From assembly GCF_003726035.1 (NCBI RefSeq), contig NZ_QICD01000007.1, forward strand, positions 68,127 to 100,126: a stretch of DNA of 32,000 bases. Direction: 5' to 3'. The notes beneath the pieces were generated by a model that had not been told where the DNA came from, did no database searches, and worked only from the letters and a program-made list of their open reading frames with translations. Shown here piece by piece: positions 4,357-22,090 of the stretch; within the stretch, counting starts at the first letter, position 1, and the number at the start of each line of letters is the position of its first letter. The DNA is from Paraeggerthella hongkongensis. Its GTDB lineage: Bacteria > Actinomycetota > Coriobacteriia > Coriobacteriales > Eggerthellaceae. A program made the translations under genes and the position numbers.

Positions 4357-5130
4357 GTGAAGGTCAGCGAGCGGCAAGCCGACCAAGCGAGGGTCTTAGG
4401 CTGTCATCTTGAGAGTTCGAAGCGAACCGAAGAATCTTCAGTCGGGGAAGCCCTCCTGCCTCGAGAAGGCCGTCTTGTCGTTATCGAGGGCCTGGACGGT
4501 TCCGGCAAAGAAACCCAGGCGAGCCTTCTGCGAAAGCGTTTGCTGAAAGACGGCATCGACCTGCGATCCCTCTCCTTCCCCTGTTACAAAAGCGACTCTT
4601 CAGCCCTCGTGCGAATGTACCTGGAGGGCAGGTTTGGCTCGAAGCCAAACGACGTCAACGCGTACGCTGCTTCGGCTTTCTACGCGGTTGACCGCTACGC
4701 TTCCTACAAGGAGAACTGGGGGGCGTTCTATGAAGCGGGCGGGCTTGTGCTCGCCGATCGATGGACCACCTCCAACGCCGTGCACCAATGCGCGAAGCTG
4801 CCGCGTTCTGATTGGGACACCTATCTGGACTGGCTCTTCGATTTCGAGTACCGCTTGATCGGGGTACCAAAACCAGACCTGGTAGTTTACCTGAGTATGG
4901 GCGCAGACGTGAGCACAAGGCTCGTCGAGGGCCGCTGCGCACGCGAAGGCACCGCCAAAGACGTGCACGAGGCGGACGCCTCTTATATGCAGCGCTGCCG
5001 TGAAGCCGCCGACTACTGCGCGGACCGCTTGGGTTGGAAGAAGGTCGAGTGTGCTCCCGAAGGCGCTCTGCGGACGATGGGAGATATTCATGAAGAGATT
5101 GCGAGGCTAGTGGAGCAAGATGGTAGATAG
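4357..5130 (+). CDS. tmk: Thymidylate (dTMP) kinase family protein with a ~35-aa atypical N-terminal extension
   Basis: It has the P-loop VIEGLDGSGKETQ, a DRWTTSN (DRY/H-like) motif, and LVRMYLEGRFG..NAYAASAFYAVDRYASYK, which is typical of the Firmicutes-type Tmk subgroup. GTG 4357 is the only conventional start upstream of the P-loop, and it has no SD. Confidence 0.75.
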   Translation: MKVSERQADQARVLGCHLESSKRTEESSVGEALLPREGRLVVIEGLDGSGKETQASLLRKRLLKDGIDLRSLSFPCYKSDSSALVRMYLEGRFGSKPNDVNAYAASAFYAVDRYASYKENWGAFYEAGGLVLADRWTTSNAVHQCAKLPRSDWDTYLDWLFDFEYRLIGVPKPDLVVYLSMGADVSTRLVEGRCAREGTAKDVHEADASYMQRCREAADYCADRLGWKKVECAPEGALRTMGDIHEEIARLVEQDGR

Positions 5131-6244
5131 AGAAATTCTTGTAACAAGGTCATCCATGCCCCCATTCGAAGAATACTGCAATGAAATTCGGGGGCTTTGG
5201 AATACTCGTTTCCTTACAAACTGCGGCAAAAAGCACGCTGAACTTGAGCAGGCGATCAAAAACTACCTGGGTGTCCAGCAATTGTCTCTATTCGTGAACG
5301 GGCACTCCGCCCTCGAGTGCATTCTCGAAACCCTGGAGCTTGGCAAAGACGGACGAAACGAGGTGATCACTACACCGTTCACATTCGCATCGACTTCCCA
5401 CGCCATCGTGCGCAAAGGACTTAAACCTGTTTTTTCCGATATTCGAGAAACCGACTACACTCTCGACCCAGAAAAAATCGAATCCCATATTACCGAAAAA
5501 ACCTGTGCGATCTTGCCAGTTCATGTGTATGGCAATGTCTGCAATCACAAGCAAATCCAAGCAGTCGCTGCCAAATACGATCTCAAGGTAATTTACGACG
5601 CCGCGCATGCGTTTGGCGTAAAGAAGGACGGTGCTCCAGTAGGCACTTTTGGAGATGCTTCGATGTTTAGCTTTCACGCAACAAAGGTCTTCAATACAAT
5701 CGAAGGTGGCGCCGTGGCCTACTCCGACGAGACTCTGGCAGAAAAGCTTTCGCAATGGAGAAATTTTGGCATTACCGGTCTGGAGTCCTGTGAATATATC
5801 GGCGGAAACGCCAAAATGAATGAGTTTTCTGCTGCTATGGGTCTGTGCAACCTTCGTTATGTCGACAGGGAGATTCGAAAGCGAAAGATAGCCGCAGAAA
5901 GGTACTTCGACCTTCTTGCATCCGTGCCGGGACTCTCGTTGTGCATCCCTCCCGCCAACATCGAACACAACTATTCGTACATGCCGGTTATTGTCGATCC
6001 GAACTTGTTTGGTGCAAATCGGGATGAAGTGCTCGCCGCTCTTGAAGAGAACCGGATTGGAGCGCGAAAATACTTCTACCCGATCATAAACGATTATGCT
6101 TGCTATCGAGGGACTTACGACAGTAGGGATACACCCGTTGCAAAGCGTATTGCCCAACAAGTGATCACCCTCCCATTATATGCGGACCTATCAACCGATA
6201 AAGTGAATCAGATTTGCGAAATAGTTAGAGGCTTGCATGGCTAA
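5120..6244 (+). CDS. DegT/DnrJ/EryC1/StrS-family PLP-dependent sugar aminotransferase
   Basis: It has the SFHATK PLP-lysine motif, NGHSALEC, TTPFTFAST and YDAAHAFG. A GGAG lies 5 nt upstream of the ATG. The gene overlaps the tmk stop. It is a paralogue of 24898..26013. Confidence 0.9.
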   Translation: MVDREILVTRSSMPPFEEYCNEIRGLWNTRFLTNCGKKHAELEQAIKNYLGVQQLSLFVNGHSALECILETLELGKDGRNEVITTPFTFASTSHAIVRKGLKPVFSDIRETDYTLDPEKIESHITEKTCAILPVHVYGNVCNHKQIQAVAAKYDLKVIYDAAHAFGVKKDGAPVGTFGDASMFSFHATKVFNTIEGGAVAYSDETLAEKLSQWRNFGITGLESCEYIGGNAKMNEFSAAMGLCNLRYVDREIRKRKIAAERYFDLLASVPGLSLCIPPANIEHNYSYMPVIVDPNLFGANRDEVLAALEENRIGARKYFYPIINDYACYRGTYDSRDTPVAKRIAQQVITLPLYADLSTDKVNQICEIVRGLHG

Positions 6245-7463
6245 ATTCGAAAACCACGAATCAAAACCACAGAAGAAGGCTCTGATTCTCAACGCCAGTC
6301 ATAACGACATGCGCATGATTCAAGCCTTAAAAGCGCTGGGCTACTATGTGATTACGATCGGGCAAAACCCCGGCCTCATTGGGGAAAAGTACGCGGATGA
6401 ATACATCTGTCAAGATTATTCCGACGAAGAGGCAACGCTTGCCCTGGCAAAGGGTCTGAATATCGATGCGATTTGCTCTTGCTGCAATGACTTTGGGGTA
6501 TTGACCGCTGCTTATGTTGCCGAGCGGCTGAAGCTTCCTGGACATGATTCTTACGAAGTGGCTCAAGTGCTGCATCATAAGGATAGGTTCAAGTCTTTCG
6601 CGCGCGAGCTCGGCATCAAAACTCCGTTGGCGAGAGTTTTCATTAGCCCACAAGCCGCACTGGAGTGGATAAAATTTCATGGTGAATATCCGCTCATGGT
6701 AAAAGCCCCTGATTTGAGTGCTGGCAATGGCATCACCAAAGTATGCAGATGGCAAGAAGCTCGGCCTGCCGTAGAATTAGCCTTTGAAAAATCCAGAACA
6801 AAAAGCATTGTTGTCGAACCTTACATTGAGGGAACCCAGCACGCCATCTGCACGTTTCTGATTGACCGGAAGGTTGTCGCAGCATGCTCCAATAACGAAT
6901 ACTCATTTATTAACCCTTATCGCGTAGAGATCGACACCTTTCCTGCTGACGGTATTGAAGCACTGCAAGACAGACTTATTGCGGAAATTGAGAAAATGGC
7001 CGAGGCGTTGCACTTGACTGACGGCATTTTTGAAATGCAGTACCATATGACCCCCGATGGTGATTTTTGGATTATGGAATGCATGCGGCGCGTACTCGGA
7101 AACCTATACAGCATCCCTTCTTCAAGCCTTATGGGATTTAATTGGGACTACTGGGAGGTGCGCGCGCGATGCGGACTTGGATGCAGAGACTTTCCCTTGC
7201 ATGCCCAACCCTCTGGGTTCTTCGCCTATAGAGCCCTCATTGCTGAGAAGAACGGTATCTACAAGTCTTTAAACGTTGCTGATAGTGTTCGGCAGTACAT
7301 TGTTGAAACCTGTATGCTTCAAGATTTTGGCTATGAAATAAGGAACCATAAATCAGACCCCATGGGTTTCCTTTTCTTTTCCTTTCCCGATAGAGAAACG
7401 ATGGACTCAGTAATGGTTGATCAATACCGCAACGTAAAAGTCGAAGTAGAGGAGTTGCTGTGA
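6237..7463 (+). CDS. ATP-grasp domain protein (putative amide/peptide ligase acting on a sugar intermediate)
   Basis: It has the ATP-grasp core YPLMVKAPDLSAGNGI...VVEPYIEG and a pre-ATP-grasp Rossmann-like N-terminus. The start overlaps the aminotransferase stop (6237/6244). Confidence 0.8.
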   Translation: MAKFENHESKPQKKALILNASHNDMRMIQALKALGYYVITIGQNPGLIGEKYADEYICQDYSDEEATLALAKGLNIDAICSCCNDFGVLTAAYVAERLKLPGHDSYEVAQVLHHKDRFKSFARELGIKTPLARVFISPQAALEWIKFHGEYPLMVKAPDLSAGNGITKVCRWQEARPAVELAFEKSRTKSIVVEPYIEGTQHAICTFLIDRKVVAACSNNEYSFINPYRVEIDTFPADGIEALQDRLIAEIEKMAEALHLTDGIFEMQYHMTPDGDFWIMECMRRVLGNLYSIPSSSLMGFNWDYWEVRARCGLGCRDFPLHAQPSGFFAYRALIAEKNGIYKSLNVADSVRQYIVETCMLQDFGYEIRNHKSDPMGFLFFSFPDRETMDSVMVDQYRNVKVEVEELL

Positions 7464-8635
7464 CGAAGTCTGTAACGCTAGGCATGGCGGGGGCAGGACG
7501 TGCTTGCGAATTGCACATGGAAGGACTTCGTCGATTCAGCGGTGTTCCCGTTCGACTGAAGACAGTTATGGCTCGTAGGCAAGATCAGCTTGATGAAGCC
7601 GTGAATCGCTGGTCGTTCGAGCAATCGACCAAGAGCTTCGAAGATATGCTCAACGATCCGGAGATCGACGTAATCGATATTTGCACGCCACCTTACCTGC
7701 ATCTTGAAATGGCGGAAAAGGCTCTTTTGGCCGGGAAACACGTCATTTGCGAGAAACCACTCGCTGGGTACTTCGGGCAAGAGGGCGATGAGGAGCCTAT
7801 TGGAGACAAGGTTTCAAAGCGCATAATGTACGAACGGCTTCTGGAAAGTATGGAAAAGCTTCGTGAGATTGTAGAAAGCTCAGAATGTAAATTCATGTAT
7901 GCAGAGAATTTCGTCTACGCTCCGGCCGTCATGAAGGCGGCAGAAATCATACGCGCGAAAGGAAGCAGGATCCTGTACGCAAAAGGCGAGGAGAGCCTCA
8001 AAGGATCAAGCTCGCACGTTGCGGGCGAATGGAGCAAAACCGGCGGTGGCACATTCATAAGGACCGGGACTCATCCGCTGTCTGCGATTCTTTGGTTGAA
8101 GCAGCAAGAGGCGCTTGCGCGCGAGGAAGACATTCGCGTGGAAAGCGTATTGGCTGACATGGGTCGCGTAACTCCCAGCTTAAGCGATTACGAGCACCGA
8201 CATATTTCAGCACATCCTCGTGACGTGGAAGATCTGGGAACCGCCATACTTTCCTTTTCTGACGGATCAAAAGCCAATATCGTTGCTTGCGATACTTTGC
8301 TCGGCGGCTCGAAGAACGTTCTCGAGCTGTACTGCAACGATGCGGCAATCAATTGCACCCTCACCATGTCAAACATCATGAGCACTTATTTCCTTGATGA
8401 GGATTGCCTTGACGGGGTCAGCATATCTGAGATGCTCCCAGCAAAGACGGGCTGGAATAACCCGTTTCTTGCAGACGAAATACTCCGTGGCTACACCGAC
8501 GAAATGCAGGACTTTATGGCATGCATTTATTACGACGCAGAACCCAAGTCAGGTTTTGATTTGGCCTACCAAACCATCAAAGTTCTTTACGCTGCCTATC
8601 TTTCCGCTGAAGAAGATAAGCGAATCTTTCTTTAA
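7460..8635 (+). CDS. Gfo/Idh/MocA-family NAD(P)-dependent oxidoreductase (sugar dehydrogenase-like)
   Basis: It has the N-terminal GMAGAGRA Rossmann motif and CEKPLA (the EKP motif). The GTG start overlaps the previous TGA (7460/7463) and has GAGGAG upstream. Confidence 0.85.
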   Translation: MTKSVTLGMAGAGRACELHMEGLRRFSGVPVRLKTVMARRQDQLDEAVNRWSFEQSTKSFEDMLNDPEIDVIDICTPPYLHLEMAEKALLAGKHVICEKPLAGYFGQEGDEEPIGDKVSKRIMYERLLESMEKLREIVESSECKFMYAENFVYAPAVMKAAEIIRAKGSRILYAKGEESLKGSSSHVAGEWSKTGGGTFIRTGTHPLSAILWLKQQEALAREEDIRVESVLADMGRVTPSLSDYEHRHISAHPRDVEDLGTAILSFSDGSKANIVACDTLLGGSKNVLELYCNDAAINCTLTMSNIMSTYFLDEDCLDGVSISEMLPAKTGWNNPFLADEILRGYTDEMQDFMACIYYDAEPKSGFDLAYQTIKVLYAAYLSAEEDKRIFL

Positions 8636-8650
8636 GGAGCACAGCCGATA

Positions 8651-9682
8651 ATGACTATGGAATTTCGTCGCCGTCTTCCGATTCCCGCAGAGGTAAAGGA
8701 AGATCTGCCGCTTCCTTCGAGATACGAGAAGAAAAAGGCGGAGAGAGATTGGGAGATCGGGCAAATTCTCCAAGGAGTGGATGCTACGAGAAAGCTGCTC
8801 GTTATCGGGCCTTGCTCAGCCGACAGGAGCGATGCCGTTCTCGAATACTGCGCAAAGCTTGCAGAGCTTCAGGAGAAAGTGAAGGACAAGCTGCTGATCA
8901 TTCCCCGCATTTATACCAGCAAGCCTCGAACGACAGGAGCTGGCTATAAAGGTATGTTGCATCAGCCAAACCCCAGCAGCGGATCCGACATGTTAGAAGG
9001 CCTAAAAACCATCCGAAGCCTACATCTCAAAGTGATTCAAGAAACCAACTTGTTCGGTGCGGATGAGATGCTTTATCCATCAAGCTACAGGTTCGTATCG
9101 GACCTACTATCTTATGCCGCAGTGGGTGCGCGCTCTGTGGAAAACCAAGAGCACAGATTGACCGCATCCGGTTTGGATATACCAGTGGGAATGAAAAACC
9201 CTACGGGAGGGGATATTTCCGTCATGATTAATGCAGTGTATGCGGCGCAGCAAGGACATATGTTCATCTATCGAAACTGGGAAGTTGTGACTTCGGGGAA
9301 CCCTCTTGCGCATGCAATTTTGCGTGGCTACAAAAGATCTGACGGCAGAAATCGACCAAACTACCACTATGAAGACCTTCTCCTCCTATGTGAGGAATAT
9401 TCAAAGATGGGATTGAAGAACCCGTCGGTGGTCATCGACTGCAACCACGCAAATTCGAATAAGAAGCACGTGGAACAGCCGCGCATCGTTCGCGATGTTC
9501 TTCGCAGCTGCTCCGAGTCGAAAGAAGTCTCAACCATGATAAAGGGCTTCATGGTTGAGAGCTATTTAGAGGAAGGAAGCCAGAAGGTCGGTGGGAGTGT
9601 ATATGGGAAGTCAATAACAGACCCCTGTCTTGGCTGGAGCGGAACCGAACGTCTGATCCTAGAGTTGGCAGATGAGCTCTGA
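8651..9682 (+). CDS. 3-deoxy-7-phosphoheptulonate (DAHP) synthase, type I-alpha (AroF/G/H-like) homologue
   Basis: It is collinear with AroG-type enzymes: VIGPCS, SKPRTT..YKG, VGARSVENQEHR..ASG, VGMKNPTGG, ILRG, DCNHANS, MVESYLEEGSQ and YGKSITDPCLGW. AAGGAG lies upstream. Confidence 0.85.
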   Translation: MTMEFRRRLPIPAEVKEDLPLPSRYEKKKAERDWEIGQILQGVDATRKLLVIGPCSADRSDAVLEYCAKLAELQEKVKDKLLIIPRIYTSKPRTTGAGYKGMLHQPNPSSGSDMLEGLKTIRSLHLKVIQETNLFGADEMLYPSSYRFVSDLLSYAAVGARSVENQEHRLTASGLDIPVGMKNPTGGDISVMINAVYAAQQGHMFIYRNWEVVTSGNPLAHAILRGYKRSDGRNRPNYHYEDLLLLCEEYSKMGLKNPSVVIDCNHANSNKKHVEQPRIVRDVLRSCSESKEVSTMIKGFMVESYLEEGSQKVGGSVYGKSITDPCLGWSGTERLILELADEL

Positions 9683-10445
9683 TTCCATGTCTGAAAACTC
9701 CTTTCCAGGCTCCAGTAACTCCCTGCGAAATCGGCGCTGGAGAAAAAGATCCTTGTATGAAAGATTCGGGAAAAGGGCAATCGACGTAGCGGTTTCAGCT
9801 TTTGTCCTGGTGGTTACGCTTCCGGTCAATGCGTGCATTGCGATTCGCACATATTTTGATGTGGGGAGTCCCATCCTGTTTAAACAAGAGAGGGTCGGCA
9901 TACATGGAGAGGTATTCACGTTAGTCAAGTTCCGCAATATGACCAACGAGACGGATGAGAACGGTCAGCTGTTGCTACCCGAGGACCGCGTAACTGATTT
10001 CGGGCGTTTCGTTAGATCGACGTCGCTCGATGAGCTTTTGAATTTCTGGTCGATTTTCAAAGGGGATATGTCGCTCATCGGCCCGAGGCCGCTGTTGGTT
10101 GAATATCGAGACTTATGGACGGAAGAGCACCTGGAGCGCTTGGGTGTTTTGCCAGGCCTCGAGTGTCCTACGCCTAAGAGAATCGATCATGCTATTACCT
10201 GGCAAGAGCAATTTGACAACGACGTATGGTATGCAGCCAATATCAGCCTGAAAACCGATATCAAATTGCTGGTCCGCCTCTTTTCACTGGTCCTGGATAA
10301 AGAACAGAGAAAAGCTCGGGAGGACGGCACGAAAGGCTATTTCATTGGTTACAGAGATGGCGAAGCGATCACCGAAGCCGAAGTGGATAACTGGCGAAGC
10401 AGCAGAGTGTTCTTTCCTGGCCGAAATTTGAGCGAAGATAAATGA
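9672..10445 (+). CDS. Initiating phosphoglycosyl transferase (bacterial sugar transferase, small PglC/WbaP-C-like)
   Basis: It has a single N-terminal re-entrant helix (AIDVAVSAFVLVVTLPV), then PILFKQERVG, KFRNM and LDELLNFWSIFKGDMSLIGPRP. It overlaps the DAHPS stop. Confidence 0.85.
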   Translation: MSSDSMSENSFPGSSNSLRNRRWRKRSLYERFGKRAIDVAVSAFVLVVTLPVNACIAIRTYFDVGSPILFKQERVGIHGEVFTLVKFRNMTNETDENGQLLLPEDRVTDFGRFVRSTSLDELLNFWSIFKGDMSLIGPRPLLVEYRDLWTEEHLERLGVLPGLECPTPKRIDHAITWQEQFDNDVWYAANISLKTDIKLLVRLFSLVLDKEQRKAREDGTKGYFIGYRDGEAITEAEVDNWRSSRVFFPGRNLSEDK

Positions 10446-11554
10446 AAGAGACTTCGATGAGGGTTCTAGTATACGGAATGGTCGGCACGAACAGAGGCGG
10501 TATCGAAACCTTCCTGCTGAATATGAACGAGCACATGTCAGATGGCTGTGTTTTCGATTACGTTATAGAAGAAGAGACATGCATACATGAAGACAGGGTT
10601 TTCCAAAAAGGCGGAAAGCTATTCCGAATAGCACCGAGAAAGACGCATCCGATGAAGAACGCCATCGATTCGTGGAGGTTAATGAAGAGCGCGGCGGCAA
10701 GCAATATGCCCGTGTATTTCAATTTGTCTTCATTGAGCTGGATTGTGCCCGTCGTCGAGGCGCGGTTGCTCAAGTTGGACGTATTCGTGCATGCGCACAA
10801 CTCGGAGCTCATTGACTGCAACAGCGGCTTTTTCTACAAATTGGCTAACTCAATAAGTCGATGCATTATCAAAAAAATGAGAATCCATCGATTGACTTGC
10901 TCGGATCTCGCAGCATCGTTTATGTTTGGCGACGAGAAAAACGTCTTGATGATCCACAATGCCATAGATCTGCAGAAGTTCCGCTTCAACGAAGAAGCCC
11001 GAAACAACATAAGGAAAAAACTAAATATTTATAACGACATCGTTGTTGGTTTCGTAGGAAGGATCGCCTATGAAAAAAACCCGAGCTTTTTGCTCGATAT
11101 AGCAGACAGTCTGTCGAAGCAAACCGAGAAGAATTGGACTGTCGTGCTGCTTGGAGACGGCCCCCTGCGTGAGTCGTTCGAACGTCAAGTACGAGAATCC
11201 AATTTCAAGTCTCATTTTCTATTGCTTGGCAATGTTCCTAATCCAAATGACTACATGCAAGCATTCGATGTGCTATGCCTGCCTTCGAGGCACGAAGGTT
11301 TGCCTTATGTATTGGTGGAAGCCCAAGCATCAGGACTCCGGTGCCTGGTATCCGACCGCATAACTCGCGTGGCGGCAGTCACGGATTTGGTTTCGTATTT
11401 GCCCGTAGGCCAAGACTCCGAGCTTTGGGCTGATGCGATTCTCAAACTGGAAGACAGAAACCGTTCCGTTTTCCTCGATACAATGTCTGAAACACGTTTT
11501 AACATTGATATCGAGGCGCCGCGCTTGGAGGGGATACTGCGTTCGTCATGGTGA
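10442..11554 (+). CDS. Glycosyltransferase family 4 (GT-B, retaining type)
   Basis: It has the EX7E motif HEGLPYVLVEAQASG and GRIAYEKN. An ATGA start/stop overlap links it to the previous gene. Confidence 0.85.
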   Translation: MKETSMRVLVYGMVGTNRGGIETFLLNMNEHMSDGCVFDYVIEEETCIHEDRVFQKGGKLFRIAPRKTHPMKNAIDSWRLMKSAAASNMPVYFNLSSLSWIVPVVEARLLKLDVFVHAHNSELIDCNSGFFYKLANSISRCIIKKMRIHRLTCSDLAASFMFGDEKNVLMIHNAIDLQKFRFNEEARNNIRKKLNIYNDIVVGFVGRIAYEKNPSFLLDIADSLSKQTEKNWTVVLLGDGPLRESFERQVRESNFKSHFLLLGNVPNPNDYMQAFDVLCLPSRHEGLPYVLVEAQASGLRCLVSDRITRVAAVTDLVSYLPVGQDSELWADAILKLEDRNRSVFLDTMSETRFNIDIEAPRLEGILRSSW

Positions 11555-12765
11555 AGAGCCGCATACAGAATTCTATCTCCAGTATAAGAGTGGCGGATCT
11601 CCTTGTTTTTCTGATCGCGCTCTTTTTCTTCAGACCTTCTTTGTTTGAAAAGTATGAATCGCTTAACATGGGTTTCAATCTTGGATTGATCGCCCTGCTC
11701 GCGCTTTACCTCGTCATTGCTTCTTTGAAAAACAAGACCGGAGTTACGGTTTATTCCTGCATGGCTGTAGGTTACTTTCTACTCTTGCTCACCTCGACGT
11801 ATATCAATGATGGGTCTTTAACTAGATCGATGATGTATGTAGGCGTGGGAATCCTGAGCGTTCTCGTATTCGCAAGCATCTTCAAGTACGAGATGGCGGC
11901 ATTTTTGAACTCCATGCAGGTACTAGGCCTTATCTTCATTCCTTTAAACCTGCTGACAATGCTTGTGATCCCCGGTGGCTTCACGAACAACGGCGTGCAC
12001 CCAGTTTTTCTACTGGGTCAGGCTACCAGATTCATCTATTTCTTTTTGCCTATCTTTGTTTCCCTGTTGGTTCGCGATTATCGAAAAGGGACGCATCCGA
12101 GCAAATGCACGATAGCTCTATGGATTTGCGCGGAAACATCCCTTGTTATTGGGCAGACAGCTGCAGGGATAGTCGTGGTCTCGGCGCTTCCGTTGTTTAT
12201 CTTGCTTTTGGGCAATCGCTTTGCAAAAACACTATGTTCTCCGCCAGTCTACCTCGCGGTTCAGCTCACCCTGTTTTTTATCTTAGTGTTTTCTACATTG
12301 CCAGAACAGACCTTAGGTCTGCTGCAATCATTGTTCCAGAAGGATGCAACACTCAGCTCAAGAACGTATATATGGGATAAAGTTATCCTGCAGACTGAGT
12401 CAAACCCTCAGCAGTTCCTGTTCGGTTTTGGAGTACTTCAGAACAATGAGATGATCGCGCTCTTTAATTTTGTTCATTGTCATAATCATCTGCTTCAAGT
12501 GCTGTTTAATGGAGGTGTCGTAAGCCTGACGATCTTTATCACGCTGATCGGCCTTTCATACTGGGAGTTGATGAAGACCAATTCGGAAGCCACCTCTCGA
12601 ATTATATCGTTTGGGATATTCCTCTTCTCTATAGCACTATTGTTCGACACCGTTGATGGCGTTCGAAACTACTACCTTGTCCTATTGATCCTAGGTAGCT
12701 GTTCGAAATACATAAGTCAGTGCGATGACTATTCTCTTCCAAAGCTAGAACGAGGTGATAGATGA
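11548..12765 (+). CDS. wzy: O-antigen ligase/polymerase-domain (Wzy_C-type) polytopic membrane protein, the likely repeat-unit polymerase
   Basis: It has about 10 or more hydrophobic helices. SSRTYIW and HCHNHLLQVLFNGGVVS resemble the Wzy_C/O-antigen ligase domain. The gene overlaps its neighbours on both sides. Confidence 0.7.
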   Translation: MVKSRIQNSISSIRVADLLVFLIALFFFRPSLFEKYESLNMGFNLGLIALLALYLVIASLKNKTGVTVYSCMAVGYFLLLLTSTYINDGSLTRSMMYVGVGILSVLVFASIFKYEMAAFLNSMQVLGLIFIPLNLLTMLVIPGGFTNNGVHPVFLLGQATRFIYFFLPIFVSLLVRDYRKGTHPSKCTIALWICAETSLVIGQTAAGIVVVSALPLFILLLGNRFAKTLCSPPVYLAVQLTLFFILVFSTLPEQTLGLLQSLFQKDATLSSRTYIWDKVILQTESNPQQFLFGFGVLQNNEMIALFNFVHCHNHLLQVLFNGGVVSLTIFITLIGLSYWELMKTNSEATSRIISFGIFLFSIALLFDTVDGVRNYYLVLLILGSCSKYISQCDDYSLPKLERGDR

Positions 12766-13883
12766 AAAAAGTAGGAATCGTGACGCTGCATCGTTCTTAT
12801 AGCTATGGCGCCTGCTTGCAGGCATATGCCACGAAACTGGCAATAGAACAGATGGGGTGTAATGCAAGCTTCGTAAACTATGTAAACGAGAACGAGCAGT
12901 ACCAAAAACGCTTCGTATCACGACGACGAGATCATTCCTTTAACCAGAACGCGGTGGCTTCGCTAAAAAATATTATGTTAGGTCGCATACCTAACGAACG
13001 CAAAGCTTTCGATCAATTTCATGAAGAGTTCCTCCCGTCTTTAGATGAGACTTCCAACATGGCTTCAATAAGTTACTCCAATTTCGATATTTTATTATCT
13101 GGAAGCGATCAATTATGGAATCCAGAACTGTTTGGTGGACTGGATCGAGCTTATTTTCTCCAATTTGGGAATTGTAGGAAGATTGCGTATGCAGCTAGTG
13201 CGGGAAGCTACAGGTATTCGAAAGGCGAACTGGCTACTTTGGAAAACTATCTGGCAACATATAACCAGATTAGCGTACGAGAAGCCAATCTGAAGAGCCA
13301 AATCTCCAAAATAGTAGACACTCCAGTTGAAGAGGTCTTGGATCCAACCTTCTTGATAACTGGTGAAGAGTGGCTCGACCTCGCAAAGAAGCACGGTTCC
13401 TTTTCGCATGGCAAGCCCTATGTATTAGTTTATTTGGTTGGTGTATCGAAAGCTCATTATGAGATCGCTTATGCGAAAGTGATCGAAGAAGTCAAGAGAC
13501 GCTACGGCTGCGAAGCTCTTTTGATTAGGTCGGATGGAATCAGCTTCTCCGGATGCGACAAGAAGCTTAAGAGGATTACCCCATGGGATCTGATTCTAGC
13601 TATCTCAAACGCAGAGTTAAACATTGCAAGTTCTTTTCATGGGGTGGCATTCGCAGTTAACCTTGGCGCCAACTTCATAGCATTGGATAATCCAAGCAAC
13701 CCTTTACGAGTGCAAAATCTTCTTGCCGATACCGGTCTGGAGTGGAAGCGATATGCTGATACAGGTAGTGTTTCCTCCTGCCTCGATAAGCCAAGCTATG
13801 CAGAGGTTGGTAGGAGAGTTGATGAAGCAAGAGCGAAATCACTCGGATGGCTTTCGCAGGCTTTAGATTGTCAGAGTTTCTAG
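12762..13883 (+). CDS. Polysaccharide pyruvyl transferase family protein (CsaB/WcaK-like)
   Basis: It has the N-terminus KVGIVTLHRSYSYGACLQAYA, the GSDQLWNP motif and SSFHGVAFAVNLG. GAGGTGA lies upstream. Confidence 0.8.
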   Translation: MKKVGIVTLHRSYSYGACLQAYATKLAIEQMGCNASFVNYVNENEQYQKRFVSRRRDHSFNQNAVASLKNIMLGRIPNERKAFDQFHEEFLPSLDETSNMASISYSNFDILLSGSDQLWNPELFGGLDRAYFLQFGNCRKIAYAASAGSYRYSKGELATLENYLATYNQISVREANLKSQISKIVDTPVEEVLDPTFLITGEEWLDLAKKHGSFSHGKPYVLVYLVGVSKAHYEIAYAKVIEEVKRRYGCEALLIRSDGISFSGCDKKLKRITPWDLILAISNAELNIASSFHGVAFAVNLGANFIALDNPSNPLRVQNLLADTGLEWKRYADTGSVSSCLDKPSYAEVGRRVDEARAKSLGWLSQALDCQSF

Positions 13884-13924
13884 ATTGCTTATGTTTGCCA
13901 AACGTGTCGACAAGGAAGCGATAG

Positions 13925-15712
13925 GTGCTTGATATGTATACGACAATGAAAAATGTTCAAATATTGTTAAGTCTGCTCAAGCAACGCGGAATTTGCAGAG
14001 TAGTTCATTCTCCCGGTGGTAGCAACGTGGCCTTATCCCGCTCCATACAAAACGACCCCTTCTTTATCGAATACTCGGTAGTGGACGAGCGAAGCTCGGT
14101 GTTTTTCGCAATGGGTCTTGCGATGGAGCTTGACGAGCCCGTCGTTGTTTTATGTACTTCAGGAACCGCAGTAACAAACTTCTCTTCCGGTATGGCGGAA
14201 GCATATTACAAGGGAGTCCCGGTTGTCGCAGTGACTGCAGACAGAAGCACGTATCTTCTAGATCAGCTTGAGACCCAGAAGCTCAATCAGACCGACATAT
14301 TCAAATCGATAACTAAGTGCGAGGTGACACTGCCTGTTGTTCAGACGGATGACGACGCTTGGTATTGCAATAGACTGGTGAATGAGGCTCTGCTGGAGCT
14401 CTATCATCATGGAGCAGGTCCTGTTCACATTAATGTTCCCACCGTGGGCAGTAATGGTGGCTTCTCAGCGATGGAGTTGCCTTCTCAGAGGATGATCACA
14501 AGGTTGACCATTGAAGATTCTGCGGAGGAATGGCTCACGAAGAGAGACGAGTTGCTTTCTGCGGAGAAAGTCCTTGTTGTCATGGGAGAAAACGGACGGT
14601 ACTCTCAGGATGACCTGAAGGCCATTGAAAAGTTTGCGATCGCTTACGATTGCGTCGTTTCGGTAGAGCACATGTCGCCCTACAAGAAAGAGCGCTCTCT
14701 GATCACCTATCGCGCAACTGAGGCGATGACTTCGAGCGCGTTTGAGCCTCTCGTTCCAGATCTAGTGATCAATGTCGATGGCAACATCGCTTCGGTCAAT
14801 CTAAAAGACTACTTGAGGCTTAAACGGGGTAAATTCCGGCATTGGTCCATTATGCCAAATGGAAAAGTGCGCGATGTGTTCAAAGGGTTGACGGATATAT
14901 TCGAATGCTCCCCGAGGTATTTTTTCAATCGTCTCGCCGATCTCGCTGATAGTGTAGAGAAAAATAGAAGCGACTATTACGTACTGTGGCAGGAAGCTGT
15001 CGAGGCGGTTGAGATGCCCGAACTTCCTTTATCGCATTTGGCCGTAGCAAAAAGCCTAGCTTGCAGAATACCCGAGAATTCTCTTCTAGAGCTTGGAATC
15101 CTCAATTCCACCCGCACCATGCAGTTTTTTGACCTCGATCCAAGCGTAAAAGTTTCGAGCAATATCGGTGCATTAGGCATTGACGGCTCCTTATCGACTT
15201 TGATAGGTCGCTCTGTTGCAACTGATGCGTTGTCGTTTATCATTCAAGGTGACCTGAGTTTCTTTTACGATATGAATGCCTTAAACATTCGCCACGTTCC
15301 CTCTAATTTGCGAGTACTCGTTGTCAACAACGGAGGAGGTGGCGAATTCCACATCGGCATGAATCCTGATGAAGTTGACGACATGGATACCTACTTGACT
15401 GCCGCTCATAGCACGCGTGCTGAAGGGTGGGCTAGATCTCGAGGGTTCAAATATCTATCTGTCAATCGTGAGGGCGAGCTGGATGCTGCAGTAGATGAGT
15501 TTGTTTCGCCCGATTCAGAAGCTCCGGTTTTCCTCGAAGTATTCACGAGTAAATTTGATGATGCAGAACTACTAAAACGCTTCTACAAGAATAACAGTGG
15601 AGCGTCGCTAAAGGAGCGGGCTCTTGACGAGGCGAAGCAATTCGCGAAGTCGAATTTCTCTGGAAAATTGTTCTCTGCAGCTTCCCGCCTCGGCAAACAT
15701 AATAGAGCCTGA
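13925..15712 (+). CDS. Thiamine-diphosphate enzyme of the MenD (SEPHCHC synthase) family
   Basis: It has a three-domain ThDP layout: DERSS (cofactor Glu), LCTSGTAVTN, VTADR, SNIGALGIDGSLST and the ThDP motif GDLSFFYDMNAL...VLVVNNGGGGEF. The GTG 13925 start follows AAGGAAG; alternative ATG starts are at 13934 and 13946. Confidence 0.8.
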   Translation: MLDMYTTMKNVQILLSLLKQRGICRVVHSPGGSNVALSRSIQNDPFFIEYSVVDERSSVFFAMGLAMELDEPVVVLCTSGTAVTNFSSGMAEAYYKGVPVVAVTADRSTYLLDQLETQKLNQTDIFKSITKCEVTLPVVQTDDDAWYCNRLVNEALLELYHHGAGPVHINVPTVGSNGGFSAMELPSQRMITRLTIEDSAEEWLTKRDELLSAEKVLVVMGENGRYSQDDLKAIEKFAIAYDCVVSVEHMSPYKKERSLITYRATEAMTSSAFEPLVPDLVINVDGNIASVNLKDYLRLKRGKFRHWSIMPNGKVRDVFKGLTDIFECSPRYFFNRLADLADSVEKNRSDYYVLWQEAVEAVEMPELPLSHLAVAKSLACRIPENSLLELGILNSTRTMQFFDLDPSVKVSSNIGALGIDGSLSTLIGRSVATDALSFIIQGDLSFFYDMNALNIRHVPSNLRVLVVNNGGGGEFHIGMNPDEVDDMDTYLTAAHSTRAEGWARSRGFKYLSVNREGELDAAVDEFVSPDSEAPVFLEVFTSKFDDAELLKRFYKNNSGASLKERALDEAKQFAKSNFSGKLFSAASRLGKHNRA

Positions 15713-15717
15713 ACCCA

Positions 15718-17115
15718 ATGAGCAGGGAGCTTTCTCTAATAAAAAACACCGCGATATTCGCAGTGGGCAACGTCGGCTCGAAACTTCTCGTCCTGCTCCT
15801 TCTTCCTATCTGCACATACTTCATCGACCCATCAGGAGTTGGCGTATATGATCTATTGTACTCACTGCTGGAGGTTCTTAAACCTGTGGCGGTGCTTGCA
15901 ATACCAGAATCGTTGTTTCGTTGGCTTCTGGATAAAGACGCTAATCGTCGTGGTGTGTTTGCTAGTTGGACTCCGCTTTTTGTTGTACTGCTATTAGCAT
16001 TTACGTTTCTGTATGTAGCTGTTTGGTCTCTACTAAGATTTAATGATGCAGCGCTCGTGTACGCCCTGATAGTATCCGGGGTTGTGTACATGAGCCTTCA
16101 GTTTGCAACACGCGGTTTACACAATAACAAGTTATTCGCAATCCAAGGAATTGTGTACTCAATTGCACTTTGTTCGGCAAGTCTACTGTTCGTAATCCCG
16201 CTGGGCCTTGATTACAGAGGGATGCTGCTTGGAATCCTGGTTGGTAATCTCGTGTCAAGCGTGTTAATGATTGTGATTCAGCGTAAAGATTTCAAGTTCT
16301 CTTTCAAGGATAGAAACCTCGCACAAAGCAAGGAGATGTTAAGGTACTCTGCCTTACTACTCCCTAACAGTCTTTGCTGGTGGCTTATTAACGGATTTTC
16401 GCGAGTTCTTGTAGTAGGGGTATTAGGCTTAGCTGCAAATGGAGTCTTCGCAATTGCAGCAAGGTTTCCAACTGCATTAACTATGCTTTCGAATATATTT
16501 CAGCAAGCGTGGACAGAACAGGCTGTTGGAGAATTTGATGCGACGGATAGAAACGAGTACTTCACAAAGATCTTCCGCCTGTATAGCAGGATAGTGCTTT
16601 CGATTGCCATAGTCCTTATACCGTTCACTAAGTTATTTATAGACCTCTTTCTTGATTCCGGCTATACCGAGGCCTGTAACTATATAGGATTACTTTATTT
16701 GAGCGGCGTATTCAACGCCTTTTCAAGTTTTTTTGGAACAGGCTATTTTTGCGGGAAAGACACCAAGGGAGCAGCCTCTACCACTATTGTAGGCGCATTA
16801 GTTAGCTGTGGACTTAGCGTAGCATTGATCTTTCCCTTTGGGTTATTAGGGGTTGTAGTCGGAATGCTTGCTGGCCAGATGACGATGTGGATGGTGAGAA
16901 TCCGACAGAGCTCCTCTTATTTCATGATACACATTGACTGGGTTCAGATAGTAATTGGTGTCGTAATTTGTCTACTCTTTTCGGGTGCTGTTATTTTTGT
17001 AAGTGACCAAACGGCAGTTGCTCTACTATTCCTTGGTGCGGTTGTTGCAGTTTTGCTCAGTTGGGATATTTTGAAGTCTGCTTTTCGGAAGTGCGCAAGG
17101 TTTAGCAGAGAATAA
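15718..17115 (+). CDS. wzx: Oligosaccharide flippase (Wzx, MOP superfamily polysaccharide biosynthesis protein)
   Basis: It has about 12-14 TM helices and a typical N-terminus LIKNTAIFAVGNVGSKLL. Its position in the glycan operon supports the call. Confidence 0.8.
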   Translation: MSRELSLIKNTAIFAVGNVGSKLLVLLLLPICTYFIDPSGVGVYDLLYSLLEVLKPVAVLAIPESLFRWLLDKDANRRGVFASWTPLFVVLLLAFTFLYVAVWSLLRFNDAALVYALIVSGVVYMSLQFATRGLHNNKLFAIQGIVYSIALCSASLLFVIPLGLDYRGMLLGILVGNLVSSVLMIVIQRKDFKFSFKDRNLAQSKEMLRYSALLLPNSLCWWLINGFSRVLVVGVLGLAANGVFAIAARFPTALTMLSNIFQQAWTEQAVGEFDATDRNEYFTKIFRLYSRIVLSIAIVLIPFTKLFIDLFLDSGYTEACNYIGLLYLSGVFNAFSSFFGTGYFCGKDTKGAASTTIVGALVSCGLSVALIFPFGLLGVVVGMLAGQMTMWMVRIRQSSSYFMIHIDWVQIVIGVVICLLFSGAVIFVSDQTAVALLFLGAVVAVLLSWDILKSAFRKCARFSRE

Positions 17116-17142
17116 TGGGGCCGATATAGACATGGAGGCAAA

Positions 17143-18213
17143 ATGCGAGTTCTTCTATTGGGCGGAACAGGCGCGATCGGAAGAAACCTTGCAAAGATCT
17201 TGTCGTCGATGGGTTGCGAAACGGTTGTAACATCACGACAAAAACGCATTTCAAACAACGATGACATTGCCTATGTTCAAGGTAATGCCAAGGACATTGG
17301 ATTCTTAAACGATATTCTTGGTCAAAATTGGGATGCTATCGTTGATTTTATGGTGTGGTCGACAGACGAGTTCTCTGGCATAGCTGACCGTTTTCTAGGT
17401 TCAACAGACCAGTACGTCTTTATTTCAACTTATCGAGTATATGATCATTCTCCCCTTATCACAGAAGATTGCCCGCGATTACTTGATTCAACAAATGATC
17501 GGGAGTTTCTTGCGACAGATGATTATGCGCTAGCAAAAGCTCGTTGTGAGAACATTCTTTTTTCGAGCCCGAAGAGGGGATGGACGATAATTAGACCGTC
17601 GATTGTTTATGATGGATCTGGGCGGTTTGATCTTGGAGTTTTGGCTTCAGGTGTTTGGCTGTGGCGAGCTCAACATCATATCACGATACCTTTTCCTGAA
17701 GAGATGCTCCACAAAGAAACAACGATGACGTGGGGTGGAGATGTCGCGCGGATGATAGCAAGGATTCTCGGTAAGAGTGAGTCGCTTGGTGAGGTTTATA
17801 CCGCTGCGACTTCTTCCTGCATTAGTTGGAAAGAGGTGGCGGCGGCGTATCAGGAAGTGATTCCTTTTCTGTTGAAGCTATATCCACTAGATATCTTTGA
17901 AAGAGCCAAAGGAGATTTGTATCAGATTAGATACGACAGGATGTTTGATCGTGTCGTTGATAATTCTAAAATCATGAGAGCCACGGGTCTAGTGCAGGAC
18001 GATTTAGTTAATCCCAAAGAAGGTCTTCGCCATGCCGTGCGCGAATACCTTGAGTCGGGCGTAGAGCTACGCCCACGCGTTGGCGAAAATGCAAGAATGG
18101 ATCGTCTTGTCGGTGGGATGCCGTCACTCTCCCCCCTAATTGACTCAAAAGCTGGGGCAAGTCAGGTAGTGCGCTATCTAGCAAGAAGGTCATCTCTGTT
18201 AGATAGTCTCTGA
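17143..18213 (+). CDS. NAD-dependent epimerase/dehydratase family (extended/atypical SDR)
   Basis: It has GGTGAIG (GxxGxxG) and YALAK (YxxxK). A GGAGG lies 4 nt (CAAA) upstream. It is the last gene of the left operon. Confidence 0.75.
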   Translation: MRVLLLGGTGAIGRNLAKILSSMGCETVVTSRQKRISNNDDIAYVQGNAKDIGFLNDILGQNWDAIVDFMVWSTDEFSGIADRFLGSTDQYVFISTYRVYDHSPLITEDCPRLLDSTNDREFLATDDYALAKARCENILFSSPKRGWTIIRPSIVYDGSGRFDLGVLASGVWLWRAQHHITIPFPEEMLHKETTMTWGGDVARMIARILGKSESLGEVYTAATSSCISWKEVAAAYQEVIPFLLKLYPLDIFERAKGDLYQIRYDRMFDRVVDNSKIMRATGLVQDDLVNPKEGLRHAVREYLESGVELRPRVGENARMDRLVGGMPSLSPLIDSKAGASQVVRYLARRSSLLDSL

Positions 18214-18287
18214 AGGTAGCTTTTCTGAGTAGTAAGGCCAAACGGTGCCGTCGTTCAGATGAAAATGGTACCGCTGCTAAGAGGTAA

Positions 18288-18524
18288 TTGCTCTCGTTCG
18301 GTGGCGTGCCGCCTGTTTCAGTGCGCCCCGGCAAGAAGGGCGTCCCTGTCGCGTCTGCACAGCGCCTCGCCGGCAACCCCGGCACCGACCCGCTCGCCGC
18401 GGTCAGCAACCTGCCCACATTCGTCTTCGGTATGTTCCGTGCCATCGACCCCATCATCCTCGGGTTCGGGGTGGTCCAAGTGGGCCTCTCTCTCAAAAGC
18501 CACGATCCCTCCTGCGTTGCTTGA
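18288..18524 (+). other. GC-rich orphan fragment with one coding-like frame (78-codon ORF, small hydrophobic C-terminal segment), a probable gene remnant
   Basis: GC jumps abruptly compared with the flanks. The + frame from 18288 has strongly GC-biased third positions (..GKKGVPVASAQRLAGNPGTDPLAAVSNLPTFVFGMFRAIDPIILGFGVVQVGLSL..). It has a TTG start only and no SD, and I did not recognise a family. Confidence 0.2.
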
Positions 18525-18708
18525 CCAATTTGGCGATTTTCAGGACATGGATCTATTTCTTAACCTTACAACGTTAATGAAAAGGTTGCTGTCTTTGTTG
18601 ACTAAAGGATCAAAGACGCCGAGCGATTCAAGCTCATCATCAAGTTCGAGATAGTCCGAAGCAAAAATGCCATCGCTATGCTTGATAATTTCGCAATTCT
18701 CAAAGTAT

Positions 18709-19257
18709 CTACTCGTTGGTTTCGCCCGGCTTTGCGCTCTGCAAATACTGCTGAAATAATTCTATGGTGAAGAAGTGCGCCATAGGGGTAAGCCTCTGAG
18801 GAGCGATGTTTCGCTCGATGATGTCGAAGAGCTGTTCTTCGGTTTTGACGTCAAGGTATTTTATAAAGAACAGAGCATCGTCGCGGTCCTTACCCACAAG
18901 TCGAGCTGACGTCAGCTTCATTGCTAGCATCGCTTCCGCATCGGGCATTCGAACGGTAAGGTTCCCGTATTCTCGAATCGTAACCAACTCCATTCGCGAC
19001 GTGTCGATGAAGCCTTTTGCGGCATCATTGAGCCAATCCATTTCAAGCCCTTCGCAGGCTGCTATGGTCCGGGCTATTTCGCTTATTGGCCCAGTCGGGG
19101 CGAAGAGGCCATCGACGCCTTTCGTCGACGGCCTCGCCTCGTAAACCATCGTCATAACGGCCCCTCCGCAAATGACAATCTCTTCTGCGATGTCGCGCTT
19201 CTCCATTTCATCGTTTATTTCCCGAAAGAAACGCTCAATGTCGTTTTTCGTAATCAT
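18709..19257 (-). CDS. DUF6036-like nucleotidyltransferase-fold protein (candidate toxin/effector of a two-gene module)
   Basis: The N-terminus (DIERFFREINDEMEKRDIAEEIVICGGAVMTMVYEARPSTKGVDGLF) matches, from memory, the helix-GG-strand-acidic pattern of minimal NTases of the DUF6036 / AbiEii-MNT type, followed by DWLNDAAKGF. It starts 11 nt after the upstream gene's stop. Confidence 0.6.
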   Translation of the reverse strand: MITKNDIERFFREINDEMEKRDIAEEIVICGGAVMTMVYEARPSTKGVDGLFAPTGPISEIARTIAACEGLEMDWLNDAAKGFIDTSRMELVTIREYGNLTVRMPDAEAMLAMKLTSARLVGKDRDDALFFIKYLDVKTEEQLFDIIERNIAPQRLTPMAHFFTIELFQQYLQSAKPGETNE

Positions 19258-19268
19258 AAGAAGTCTTT

Positions 19269-19784
19269 CTAGGCTCGTGATAACGCATTGTCACCAAGGA
19301 ATATGTTGTGGCAGCGGAATTCCATCGGCGTCGTTTCTTTAAGGAATGCCTGGAAATCGGGGTTTTCGGTATTCATGCCATAAATTGGAGTTGGTGACAC
19401 GTATTGCTCGTCGAGCGCCCATTTGGGAACAGGGCGGGAATTATCGTGAGCAAGTTTATGGGCAGTTGCCGCTAAGAGGCAAAGCCAGTAGGTAGCGTCC
19501 GATCCCTTCCAATCAGGTTCTTTGCTTATTAAGCCGGCTTTATCATCTGAATGGGAGAAGTCATCCAAGAACTGGCCGTAGAGAAGATCCGGGTCTTCTT
19601 CGATGGCTCGTTCAGCTAATTTATTCAGTGAAAGACGCTCTCTTCCATTCATCGAAAGAAATGTCTCCGTGGATTTCCGCACGACGTCTGAAAACGTCAT
19701 GCCATGGCGATGAGCGTATTGCTCAATCGCATGTTCTTCGATTTCAGAAAAACGTATCGCGCGCGGTTTTGTTTTCATATCCAT
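19269..19784 (-). CDS. Ribbon-helix-helix (CopG/MetJ-like) N-terminal domain protein with an uncharacterised ~120-aa C-terminal domain (candidate antitoxin/regulator)
   Basis: The N-terminus RAIRFSEIEEHAIEQYAHRHGMTFSDVVRKS fits a strand-helix-helix pattern. Alternative ATG starts are at 19784 and 19778 (MDMKTK), with GAAGGG upstream. The palindrome at 19797-19819 lies immediately upstream. Confidence 0.6.
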   Translation of the reverse strand: MDMKTKPRAIRFSEIEEHAIEQYAHRHGMTFSDVVRKSTETFLSMNGRERLSLNKLAERAIEEDPDLLYGQFLDDFSHSDDKAGLISKEPDWKGSDATYWLCLLAATAHKLAHDNSRPVPKWALDEQYVSPTPIYGMNTENPDFQAFLKETTPMEFRCHNIFLGDNALSRA

Positions 19785-19796
19785 ATCCCTTCAAGC

Positions 19797-19819
19797 ATGT
19801 AATACACAGCGTATTACAT
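19797..19819. promoter_or_regulatory. Palindrome ATGTAATAC-acagc-GTATTACAT, a candidate operator for the RHH protein
   Basis: A perfect 9-bp-arm inverted repeat lies 13 nt upstream of the RHH gene start codon. RHH repressors classically autoregulate through such sites. Confidence 0.5.
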
Positions 19820-19956
19820 CTGGTGCAAATCTGCTTGCTTTGTCTGTCGATCGCCCAGCATGAATCTTGTTTTAGGTGATATGGAGCGCACGAAACCAGT
19901 GATACGCAACGAATGAAACGGCTAGGCAGCATGGCGATACGGAAAGCGCGAAACAG

Positions 19957-21952: not shown

Positions 21953-22070
21953 AAAAGAACCAAACTTGGAAGGGGCGTGATACCCGTGAGCACTAACACG
22001 CTGCTGCGCAAGAAGGTGGTGTCGTGTCTGCCATAAACCGGTTGCAAAACCTCTAAAACTGAACCCCGCG

Positions 22071-22090
22071 AAAAATCCCTGTAGTCAGGG
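22071..22090 (-). terminator. Weak candidate rho-independent terminator for the right operon (CCCTG-acta-CAGGG followed by ATTTTT on the minus strand)
   Basis: The stem is only 5 bp with a T5 tail, about 175 nt downstream of the last minus-strand ORF. Confidence 0.25.

Follow-up and report, generated by a model that had tools for sequence, protein, structure and literature searches.

MenD, the 2-succinyl-5-enolpyruvyl-6-hydroxy-3-cyclohexene-1-carboxylate (SEPHCHC) synthase of menaquinone biosynthesis, is a thiamine diphosphate (ThDP)-dependent enzyme whose substrate-binding residues have been assigned from structures and mutagenesis. In BsMenD, Arg32 and Arg106 (R33 and R107 of the Escherichia coli enzyme, EcMenD) recognize isochorismate, Arg428 (R413) binds 2-oxoglutarate, and Arg409 (R395) contacts both substrates; the site is completed by Lys299 (K292), which in EcMenD binds isochorismate together with R33, and by a patch of Ile489, Phe490, and Leu493 (I474, F475, and L478) (PMC2914249, PMC6618250). 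In the model of the E. coli enzyme, R107 holds the carboxylate that is conjugated with the alkene under attack, a water flanked by Q118 and S32 is proposed to protonate the alpha-carbon, and N117 and L478 line the enolpyruvyl channel (PMC2914249, PMC6618250); it has been remarked that the substrate scope of MenD homologues without Arg107 may be unexplored (PMC6618250). In the megapolipeptins, a hydroxyl bears a 1,5-dicarboxy-3-oxopentyl (4-oxoheptanedioic) group; MgpK, a pyruvyl transferase, and MgpL, a ThDP "SEPHCHC synthase," are both encoded in the megapolipeptin gene cluster and have been proposed to make it (PMC11411415, PMC13291983). DxpH, a related pyruvyl transferase with no ThDP partner, forms a plain pyruvate ketal from phosphoenolpyruvate (PEP) in vitro (PMC12964715). 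Here we analyze a MenD-like protein encoded at positions 13925 to 15712 of a 32,000-nucleotide stretch of Paraeggerthella hongkongensis DNA (assembly GCF_003726035.1, contig NZ_QICD01000007.1, positions 68,127 to 100,126; this whole stretch is called the window below), within a Wzx/Wzy glycan operon. The explanation that we favor, by a small margin over its being wrong, is that a MenD-derived ThDP enzyme has been rebuilt for glycan tailoring and acts with a pyruvyl transferase and a reductase, by conjugate addition to an enolpyruvyl unit followed by ketoreduction.

The gene is an open reading frame (ORF) of 595 codons for amino acids that begins with GTG, preceded at a spacing of 6 nucleotides by the Shine-Dalgarno sequence AAGGAAG; an ATG at 13934, where homologues begin, is an alternative, and either start is possible. 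All motifs quoted in a preliminary description of this stretch, made from the DNA letters alone, were found in the protein: VDER (with E55), LCTSGTAV, TADR (with R107), SNIGALGIDGSLST, and GDLSFFYDMNAL...VVNNGGGGEF, as well as PGGSN, which replaces the PGSRS of MenD. Pfam matched both TPP_enzyme_N and TPP_enzyme_C, and the protein retains the motifs for the cofactor and Mg (E55, G442-D443, and N468-N469-G471). The top NCBIfam model is menD (TIGR00173) at 228.3 bits, which is below the curated equivalog threshold of 244.2, while acetolactate synthase models reach at most 56 bits and match the N-terminal domain only. All of the top 50 Protein Data Bank (PDB) fold matches of an AlphaFold model of the protein (predicted local distance difference test, 85.4; predicted template modeling score, 0.84) are MenD crystal structures, and the nearest solved structures by sequence are MenD enzymes too. 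We predict that the protein is a catalytically competent, MenD-derived ThDP enzyme belonging to subtype A of the glycan-locus clade delineated below.

The protein is a MenD paralogue and not the housekeeping MenD, because the genome (2.8 Mb, 99.9% complete) has a true menF-menD-menH operon elsewhere and because the window protein scores below the TIGR00173 cutoff. The MenD of that operon (contig C4) scores about 385 bits (384.9 to 385.7) against the same model and is flanked by isochorismate synthase and a MenH-type hydrolase. The preliminary description had seen no other men gene nearby, and none was found in the window; its suggestion of a glycan role would have fallen had this been the only menD of the genome with its closest relatives in men operons, and we found a separate men operon and closest homologues in glycan loci. 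The gene is present in only 1 of 40 related genomes, a genome of the same genus (57% identity), and the locus is variable and probably horizontally exchanged.

The wider family was surveyed by a homologue search, which returned more than 6,000 homologues. The best 120 of these, which we examined, share 42 to 70% identity with the query, come from many phyla, and are often automatically named SEPHCHC synthase. Four contexts were sampled; a PF04230 pyruvyl transferase lies directly upstream in all four, within Wzx/Wzy loci, and a FabG-like short-chain dehydrogenase/reductase (SDR) lies directly downstream in three. With the family alignment as the query, 80 loci were retrieved (the single protein as the query gave no match), labeled by their neighbors with custom hidden Markov models, and placed in an IQ-TREE tree (quick search, midpoint root). 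Neither bit score nor identity alone could be used to separate glycan-type proteins from Bacteroidales MenDs, since the ranges overlap; the tree and the context labels were needed.

Three groups emerged from the tree. Classical MenDs (Bacillales and Actinomycetota, including the genome's own) adjoin menF and menH and share 25 to 29% identity with the window protein, and Bacteroidales and Akkermansia MenDs, which mostly adjoin menF, share 31 to 40%. The third group, a glycan clade of 21 rows (Shimodaira-Hasegawa-like approximate likelihood ratio test [SH-aLRT] support, 99), occurs only in glycan loci, and neither menF nor menH was found near the gene in any of its 21 loci. Inside this clade, the window protein pairs with the protein of locus L004 (SH-aLRT 100). 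The clade spans at least six phyla (Bacillota, Bacteroidota, Verrucomicrobiota, Spirochaetota, SAR324, and Actinomycetota) and joins the Bacteroidales/Akkermansia type of men-operon MenD (SH-aLRT 99), with Cytophagales MenDs outside. The phylogeny and context survey that the preliminary description had called for thus places the closest homologues in a glycan-locus clade, away from men operons. This topology suggests that a duplicated Bacteroidota-type MenD may have given rise to the clade, which would later have spread by horizontal transfer.

To compare active sites, all sequences were aligned to EcMenD, whose numbering is used for alignment positions; the placement of residues rests on alignment to EcMenD and BsMenD. 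S32, R33, R107, P108, Q118, K292, S391, R395, R413, I474, F475, and L478 are essentially invariant across the 61 men-operon MenDs of both types; invariance in the glycan clade is limited to E55, Q118, and the cofactor motifs. The window protein keeps R107, Q118, F475, and, as R397, the arginine at position 395. At the isochorismate site, however, it has S33, V291, E474, and G478 where MenD has R33, K292, I474, and L478, and at the 2-oxoglutarate site the retained R397 is accompanied by I414 in place of R413 and L393 in place of S391; position 32 is also changed (G32). The preliminary description had suggested that the PGSRS segment helps bind the isochorismate acceptor. This is correct, as its arginine (BsMenD Arg32, EcMenD Arg33) binds isochorismate (PMC2914249), and that arginine is a serine in the window protein. 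Nor are the acceptor residues fully MenD-like on proper alignment, the outcome that was to have spoken against a new function, since both the isochorismate-binding and the 2-oxoglutarate-binding sets contain changed residues.

The replacements form a signature, which we counted at EcMenD positions over 119 close homologues and call subtype A. Position 32 is Gly in 118 of the 119 and position 33 is other than Arg in 117; Lys or Arg stands at 107, Gln at 118, Arg at 395, Glu at 474, and Phe at 475 in every one (119/119 each), and position 391 is Leu and position 413 is Ile, Val, Leu, or Ala in 117 apiece. Because the alternative residues are so tightly conserved, we read the pattern as purifying selection on a new, different site and not as decay. 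We rejected Glu474 as the counterpart of the catalytic Glu in pyruvate decarboxylase, because it falls one residue out of register when aligned to the decarboxylase motif. Two further subtypes make up the rest of the clade. Subtype B keeps R33, S391, R395, R413, and Ile or Leu at 474 and has lost K292 and L478, and a fusion subtype (L035, L036, and L041) has Asn, Met, or Ile for R395, Met for R413, and Leu or Phe at 474.

The subtypes also differ in their TIGR00173 scores, which are 255 to 291 bits for subtype B, 228 to 240 for the window subtype, and 163 for the Ruminococcus albus branch, against 318 to 378 for Bacteroidota and Akkermansia MenDs. The NCBI cutoff therefore fails to split off the clade cleanly, and many members are misnamed. 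Four subtype-B proteins from glycan loci (L028, L037, L011, and L014) account for the scores of 255 to 291 bits, above the 244.2-bit equivalog cutoff, so annotation pipelines will call them genuine MenD.

What most clade members share is a pyruvyl transferase. A PF04230 protein is fused to the MenD-like protein or encoded within 3.5 kb of it in 19 of the 21 members: at a distance of 200 bp or less in 10 loci, within 3.5 kb in 6 more, and as a fusion in 3. The fusions come from three independent genomes and are 918 to 935 aa long, with PF04230 in the N-terminal ~400 aa and the MenD-like part in the rest; by Rosetta-stone reasoning, they argue that the pyruvyl transferase and the MenD-like enzyme act together. 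A reductase is present in 16 of the 21 loci. In some it is a FabG-like adh_short SDR and in others a homologue of the reductase encoded in the window; homologues of the latter directly adjoin the MenD-like gene in L034 and L042. All three members of this trio are encoded in the window. Among cultured strains, Ruminococcus albus 7 encodes a pyruvyl transferase (RUMAL_RS18370), a flippase, the ThDP protein (RUMAL_RS18380), and an NAD-dependent reductase (RUMAL_RS18385) on its megaplasmid pRUMAL01, in a gene order slightly different from that of the window. Its "NAD-dependent epimerase/dehydratase family protein," encoded directly downstream of the MenD-like gene, is 40% identical to the window reductase (E value, 1e-81). 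On balance, and jointly with the explanation as a whole, we lean toward the view that the MenD-like enzyme, the PF04230 pyruvyl transferase encoded upstream of it, and the window reductase would function as one unit.

Other features of these loci were noted in passing. The R. albus 7 locus (L094; NC_014824.1, 344402 to 364057) places the trio on a 420-kb megaplasmid, beside a LicD, class-V aminotransferase, and cytidylyltransferase module that forms a second decoration cassette. Comparison of L006 (8700 to 10100) with the near-identical L009 (3800 to 6100) revealed a deletion of ~675 bp in L006 that removed most of an adh_short SDR gene; this gene sits between the pyruvyl transferase and MenD-like genes in L009, and a 52-aa ORF is left of it in L006. 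The L006 lineage is the most abundant human-gut lineage (cluster P0046, 1,767 member sequences) and represents a natural reductase-less variant of the cassette. A different partner had been put forward in the preliminary description, which held that the pairing of the MenD-like gene with a 3-deoxy-D-arabino-heptulosonate 7-phosphate (DAHP) synthase gene (at 8651) was hard to dismiss as coincidence. That link did not hold up and was rejected: a DAHP synthase homologue lies within ~6 kb of the MenD-like gene in 0 of the 20 other clade loci and is seen in the window only.

How might such a trio work? In the scheme that we propose, the enzyme would decarboxylate a 2-oxo acid on ThDP and then, as MenD does, carry out a Stetter 1,4-addition in which the acyl-anion equivalent attacks the CH2= carbon of an enolpyruvyl unit derived from PEP. 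The acceptor would be one of two: PEP that has yet to be transferred, or an enolpyruvyl ether that the pyruvyl transferase has formed at a hydroxyl of a sugar. Addition would yield a 2-O-linked 4-oxo acid; its reduction by the reductase would leave the repeat unit with a 4-hydroxy acid side group, and the decorated unit would then be flipped by Wzx and polymerized by Wzy. We place an enolpyruvyl unit on the acceptor side because the partner enzyme uses PEP and the course of its reaction includes, or can end with, an enolpyruvyl ether, which is an alpha,beta-unsaturated carboxylate. A Stetter addition to such a unit is the most economical reading because the enzyme retains the MenD machinery for alpha,beta-unsaturated carboxylates while lacking the isochorismate-specific residues. 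The cassette would probably add an unusual, undescribed acidic side group to the polysaccharide. Our reading of the literature found nothing specific on a MenD-like enzyme in polysaccharide loci.

The choice of donor may differ between subtypes. Since the 2-oxoglutarate binders R413 and S391 have become hydrophobic and Ile474 an invariant Glu, the donor of subtype A is probably not 2-oxoglutarate; judging from these residues, it is probably pyruvate or some other 2-oxo acid that is small or whose side chain is polar or cationic. The C7 group of the megapolipeptins corresponds to three carbons from PEP and four from decarboxylated 2-oxoglutarate, and subtype B, in which the 2-oxoglutarate binders are kept, could build that same group on sugars. 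A bolder formulation, which we hold tentatively and regard as somewhat more apt to be wrong than right, is that a glycan enolpyruvyl unit undergoes an enzymatic Stetter reaction catalyzed by the cassette. The cassette would then contain the first "Stetterase" of polysaccharide biosynthesis, and the side groups that it installs would be undescribed, chain-extended 1-carboxy-3-oxo- or 3-hydroxy-alkyl ethers, with the subtype governing how long and how charged they are (in subtype B, a C7 diacid from 2-oxoglutarate as in megapolipeptin; in the Glu474 subtype, a product of another donor).

Other chemistries were weighed against this proposal. The preliminary description had inferred a branched or chain-extended sugar, citing YerE. 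Part of that reading stands, namely, that a MenD-family ThDP enzyme has been recruited to a Wzx/Wzy glycan operon; in addition to the failed DAHP synthase pairing, branching of the YerE kind leaves unexplained the real conserved partner, a pyruvyl transferase that is adjacent in most loci, fused in three genomes, and usually accompanied by a reductase. In such a pathway, the acyl group of a 2-oxo acid would undergo 1,2-addition to a keto-sugar nucleotide and the carbonyl of the branch would be reduced, as by YerE and YerF in yersiniose A biosynthesis. A ThDP enzyme and a reductase in one glycan operon fit this logic, the same operon has sugar-nucleotide-modifying genes (DegT and GFO), and MenD enzymes are capable of 1,2-additions in vitro. 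We nevertheless judge it unlikely, given the near-universal adjacency and occasional fusion of the pyruvyl transferase to the ThDP domain, the descent of the window protein from a 1,4-adding MenD whose R/K107 and Q118 it keeps, and its scores, which place it outside the acetohydroxyacid synthase/YerE type (228 bits for menD against 56 or less for acetolactate synthase models). No single keto-sugar pathway is common to the loci either: in the window and the sampled contexts, including R. albus 7, the sugar-nucleotide genes are assorted, and none is common to all members.

About equally improbable is that the enzyme is a plain 2-oxo-acid decarboxylase, whose aldehyde product the reductase would convert to an alcohol for use as a non-sugar substituent, with the pyruvyl transferase acting independently. 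The active-site Glu of pyruvate decarboxylases protonates the enamine, and the invariant Glu474 of subtype A, beside the thiazolium site though one position off by alignment, could do likewise; the R. albus context has LicD and cytidylyltransferase genes of the kind that attach small phospho-alcohols, and independence would agree with the lack of co-evolution with the pyruvyl transferase described below. Yet the three fusions argue for a shared substrate or channeling, subtype B has the same partners without Glu474, and an enzyme of this kind would have no need of the acceptor-side R/K107 and Q118 that all 119 close homologues retain. Far less probable still, to the point that we give it almost no weight, is a genuine MenD, redundant or housekeeping, that lies in a glycan island by chance. 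Its best family match and top structural matches are indeed all MenD, several NCBI and JGI records label homologues SEPHCHC synthase, and subtype-B members of the clade even pass the TIGR00173 cutoff. Against these stand the men operon elsewhere in the genome, the subthreshold score of the window protein, the complete absence of men genes near the 21 clade members, and the presence of the gene in a single one of 40 relatives, as well as the disappearance of R33, K292, S391, R413, I474, and L478, which are invariant in the 61 men-operon MenDs and important by mutagenesis (PMC2914249).

Several observations weigh against the conjugate addition that we favor. In a Mantel test over 18 loci, divergence of the MenD-like protein did not correlate with that of the nearest pyruvyl transferase (r = 0.07, P = 0.28), so we do not claim co-evolution of the two, and their coupling is argued from adjacency and fusion only; pyruvyl transferase and Wzx divergence correlated weakly (r = 0.37, P = 0.03, n = 8). 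This outcome is compatible with swapping of partners according to the acceptor sugar or with saturation of the distances. The enolpyruvyl-channel residues N117 and L478 of MenD are not conserved in the glycan clade, and Glu474 could confine the enzyme to simple decarboxylation. The direction of descent that the tree suggests hinges on a midpoint root and a quick search. Both the order of the steps and the identity of the donor are inferred, and the function of the clade is a prediction. The closest precedent, the pairing in Paraburkholderia megapolitana of a PF04230-type pyruvyl transferase (MgpK) with a ThDP "SEPHCHC synthase" (MgpL) as in the window, was likened to our locus by its published description, and the Mgp assignment is itself a proposal.

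The trio lies in a tightly packed operon whose GC content is 44 to 50%, against 63 to 65% in the flanks (Table 1). The genes run in the order dTMP-kinase-like protein, DegT aminotransferase, ATP-grasp protein, GFO/IDH/MocA oxidoreductase, type-I DAHP synthase, Bac_transf, GT1, Wzy, PF04230 pyruvyl transferase, MenD-like enzyme, Wzx, and NAD-binding reductase, which confirms the earlier placement of the MenD-like gene between a pyruvyl transferase and the flippase. The pyruvyl transferase gene ends 41 nucleotides upstream of the MenD-like start, and wzx, which begins 5 nucleotides after the MenD-like stop codon, is inserted between the genes for the ThDP enzyme and the reductase. The pyruvyl transferase has no sequence match in NCBIfam or the PDB, and the Rossmann-fold matches of the reductase are weak.

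Table 1. Coordinates of the trio, its operon, and the fusion proteins of the clade. Positions are those of the window unless a locus is named.
Feature	Coordinates	Strand	Basis
Tightly packed Wzx/Wzy glycan operon inside a low-GC island, carrying the trio	4357..18213	+	Gene families (Pfam), GC content
PF04230 polysaccharide pyruvyl transferase family protein, 373 aa	12762..13883	+	Pfam PS_pyruv_trans, 86.9 bits
MenD-derived ThDP-dependent enzyme (predicted), subtype A, 595 aa	13925..15712	+	Pfam, TIGR00173, tree, active-site alignment, AlphaFold model
Wzx-type flippase	15718..17115	+	Pfam Polysacc_synt
NAD(P)-binding extended-SDR-like reductase, 356 aa	17143..18213	+	N-terminal Rossmann matches
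Pyruvyl transferase::ThDP fusion protein	L035:4789-7596		PF04230 + MenD-like domain
Pyruvyl transferase::ThDP fusion protein	L036:1755-4511		PF04230 + MenD-like domain
Pyruvyl transferase::ThDP fusion protein	L041:4837-7614		PF04230 + MenD-like domain

The window as a whole holds two convergent glycan operons, in islands of 42 to 50% GC (4001 to 20000 and 22001 to 31000) set in a background of 59 to 65%; the second operon is on the minus strand, and a stretch of higher GC content at 20 to 22 kb separates the islands. The first operon opens with the gene for a thymidylate-kinase-family protein (4357 to 5130, 257 aa; Pfam, 56.7 bits), an odd location for a dTMP kinase homologue, which directly precedes the DegT, ATP-grasp, GFO, and DAHP synthase block. 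Two long minus-strand ORFs, at 28661 to 30190 (509 aa) and 1796 to 3202 (468 aa), have no Pfam match. The former sits among the glycosyltransferases of the minus-strand operon and may encode a polymerase or another membrane protein.

If the glycan clade has the role that we predict, thousands of gut, rumen, and environmental proteins that are labeled MenD or fall just under its cutoff would constitute a distinct, uncharacterized glycan-tailoring clade. Predictions of menaquinone pathways from metagenomes would be inflated by these paralogues, the more so as subtype B passes the NCBI equivalog cutoff. To our knowledge, natural Stetter-type enzymes are very rare, and biocatalysis would gain from a large family of them that comes in several active-site subtypes. 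Both immune recognition of commensals and their susceptibility to phages depend on surface polysaccharides, in which an undescribed acidic substituent would be a new determinant; if our proposal is true, it would represent a new class of acidic epitopes, displayed on the capsules of many bacteria from the gut, the rumen, and the sea.

Among described enzymes, the window protein stands nearest to MenD (EC 2.2.1.9; TIGR00173; PDB 2JLC, 3HWX, 2X7J, 5ESO, 7TIN, and 9E9B), especially to the men-operon type of Bacteroidota. The two have in common the three-domain ThDP fold, Glu55, the GD...NN Mg motif, R107, Q118, R395, and F475, and Bacteroidales MenDs, which show 37 to 40% identity to the window protein, are adjacent in the tree. 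Unlike MenD, the window protein belongs to a separate clade outside men operons, has R33, K292, S391, R413, I474, and L478 replaced, and scores below the cutoff, and its clade is linked to a pyruvyl transferase (19/21) and usually to a reductase (16/21). It probably resembles MenD in its working mode, a ThDP-dependent conjugate addition, but it falls outside MenD by score, substrate residues, context, and clade.

The other described systems resemble the locus in its pairings. YerE of Yersinia pseudotuberculosis is likewise a ThDP-dependent, C-C bond-forming enzyme encoded in a glycan cluster, and its action is followed by that of a reductase; it is, however, acetolactate-synthase-like and performs a 1,2-addition to a CDP-4-keto sugar, whereas the window protein is MenD-derived and its partner is a pyruvyl transferase. 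The product of the Mgp system, a C7 4-oxo-diacid on a hydroxyl, has the skeleton that would result if decarboxylated 2-oxoglutarate were added to an enolpyruvyl unit in the manner of MenD. That system decorates the fatty-acid tail of a lipopeptide, with no reductase step reported, whereas the window encodes a polysaccharide locus with a reductase, and because the window subtype lacks the 2-oxoglutarate-binding residues, its product should differ from the Mgp C7 group. Finally, the ketal-forming PF04230 transferases (DxpH, CsaB, WcaK, and Pvg1) belong to the same family as the pyruvyl transferase of the window, and DxpH modifies hydroxyl groups at the expense of PEP (PMC12964715). Those enzymes work without a partner and leave a plain pyruvate ketal; the family member in the window is coupled, and elsewhere in the clade fused, to a ThDP enzyme, and this implies that the final substituent is another one.

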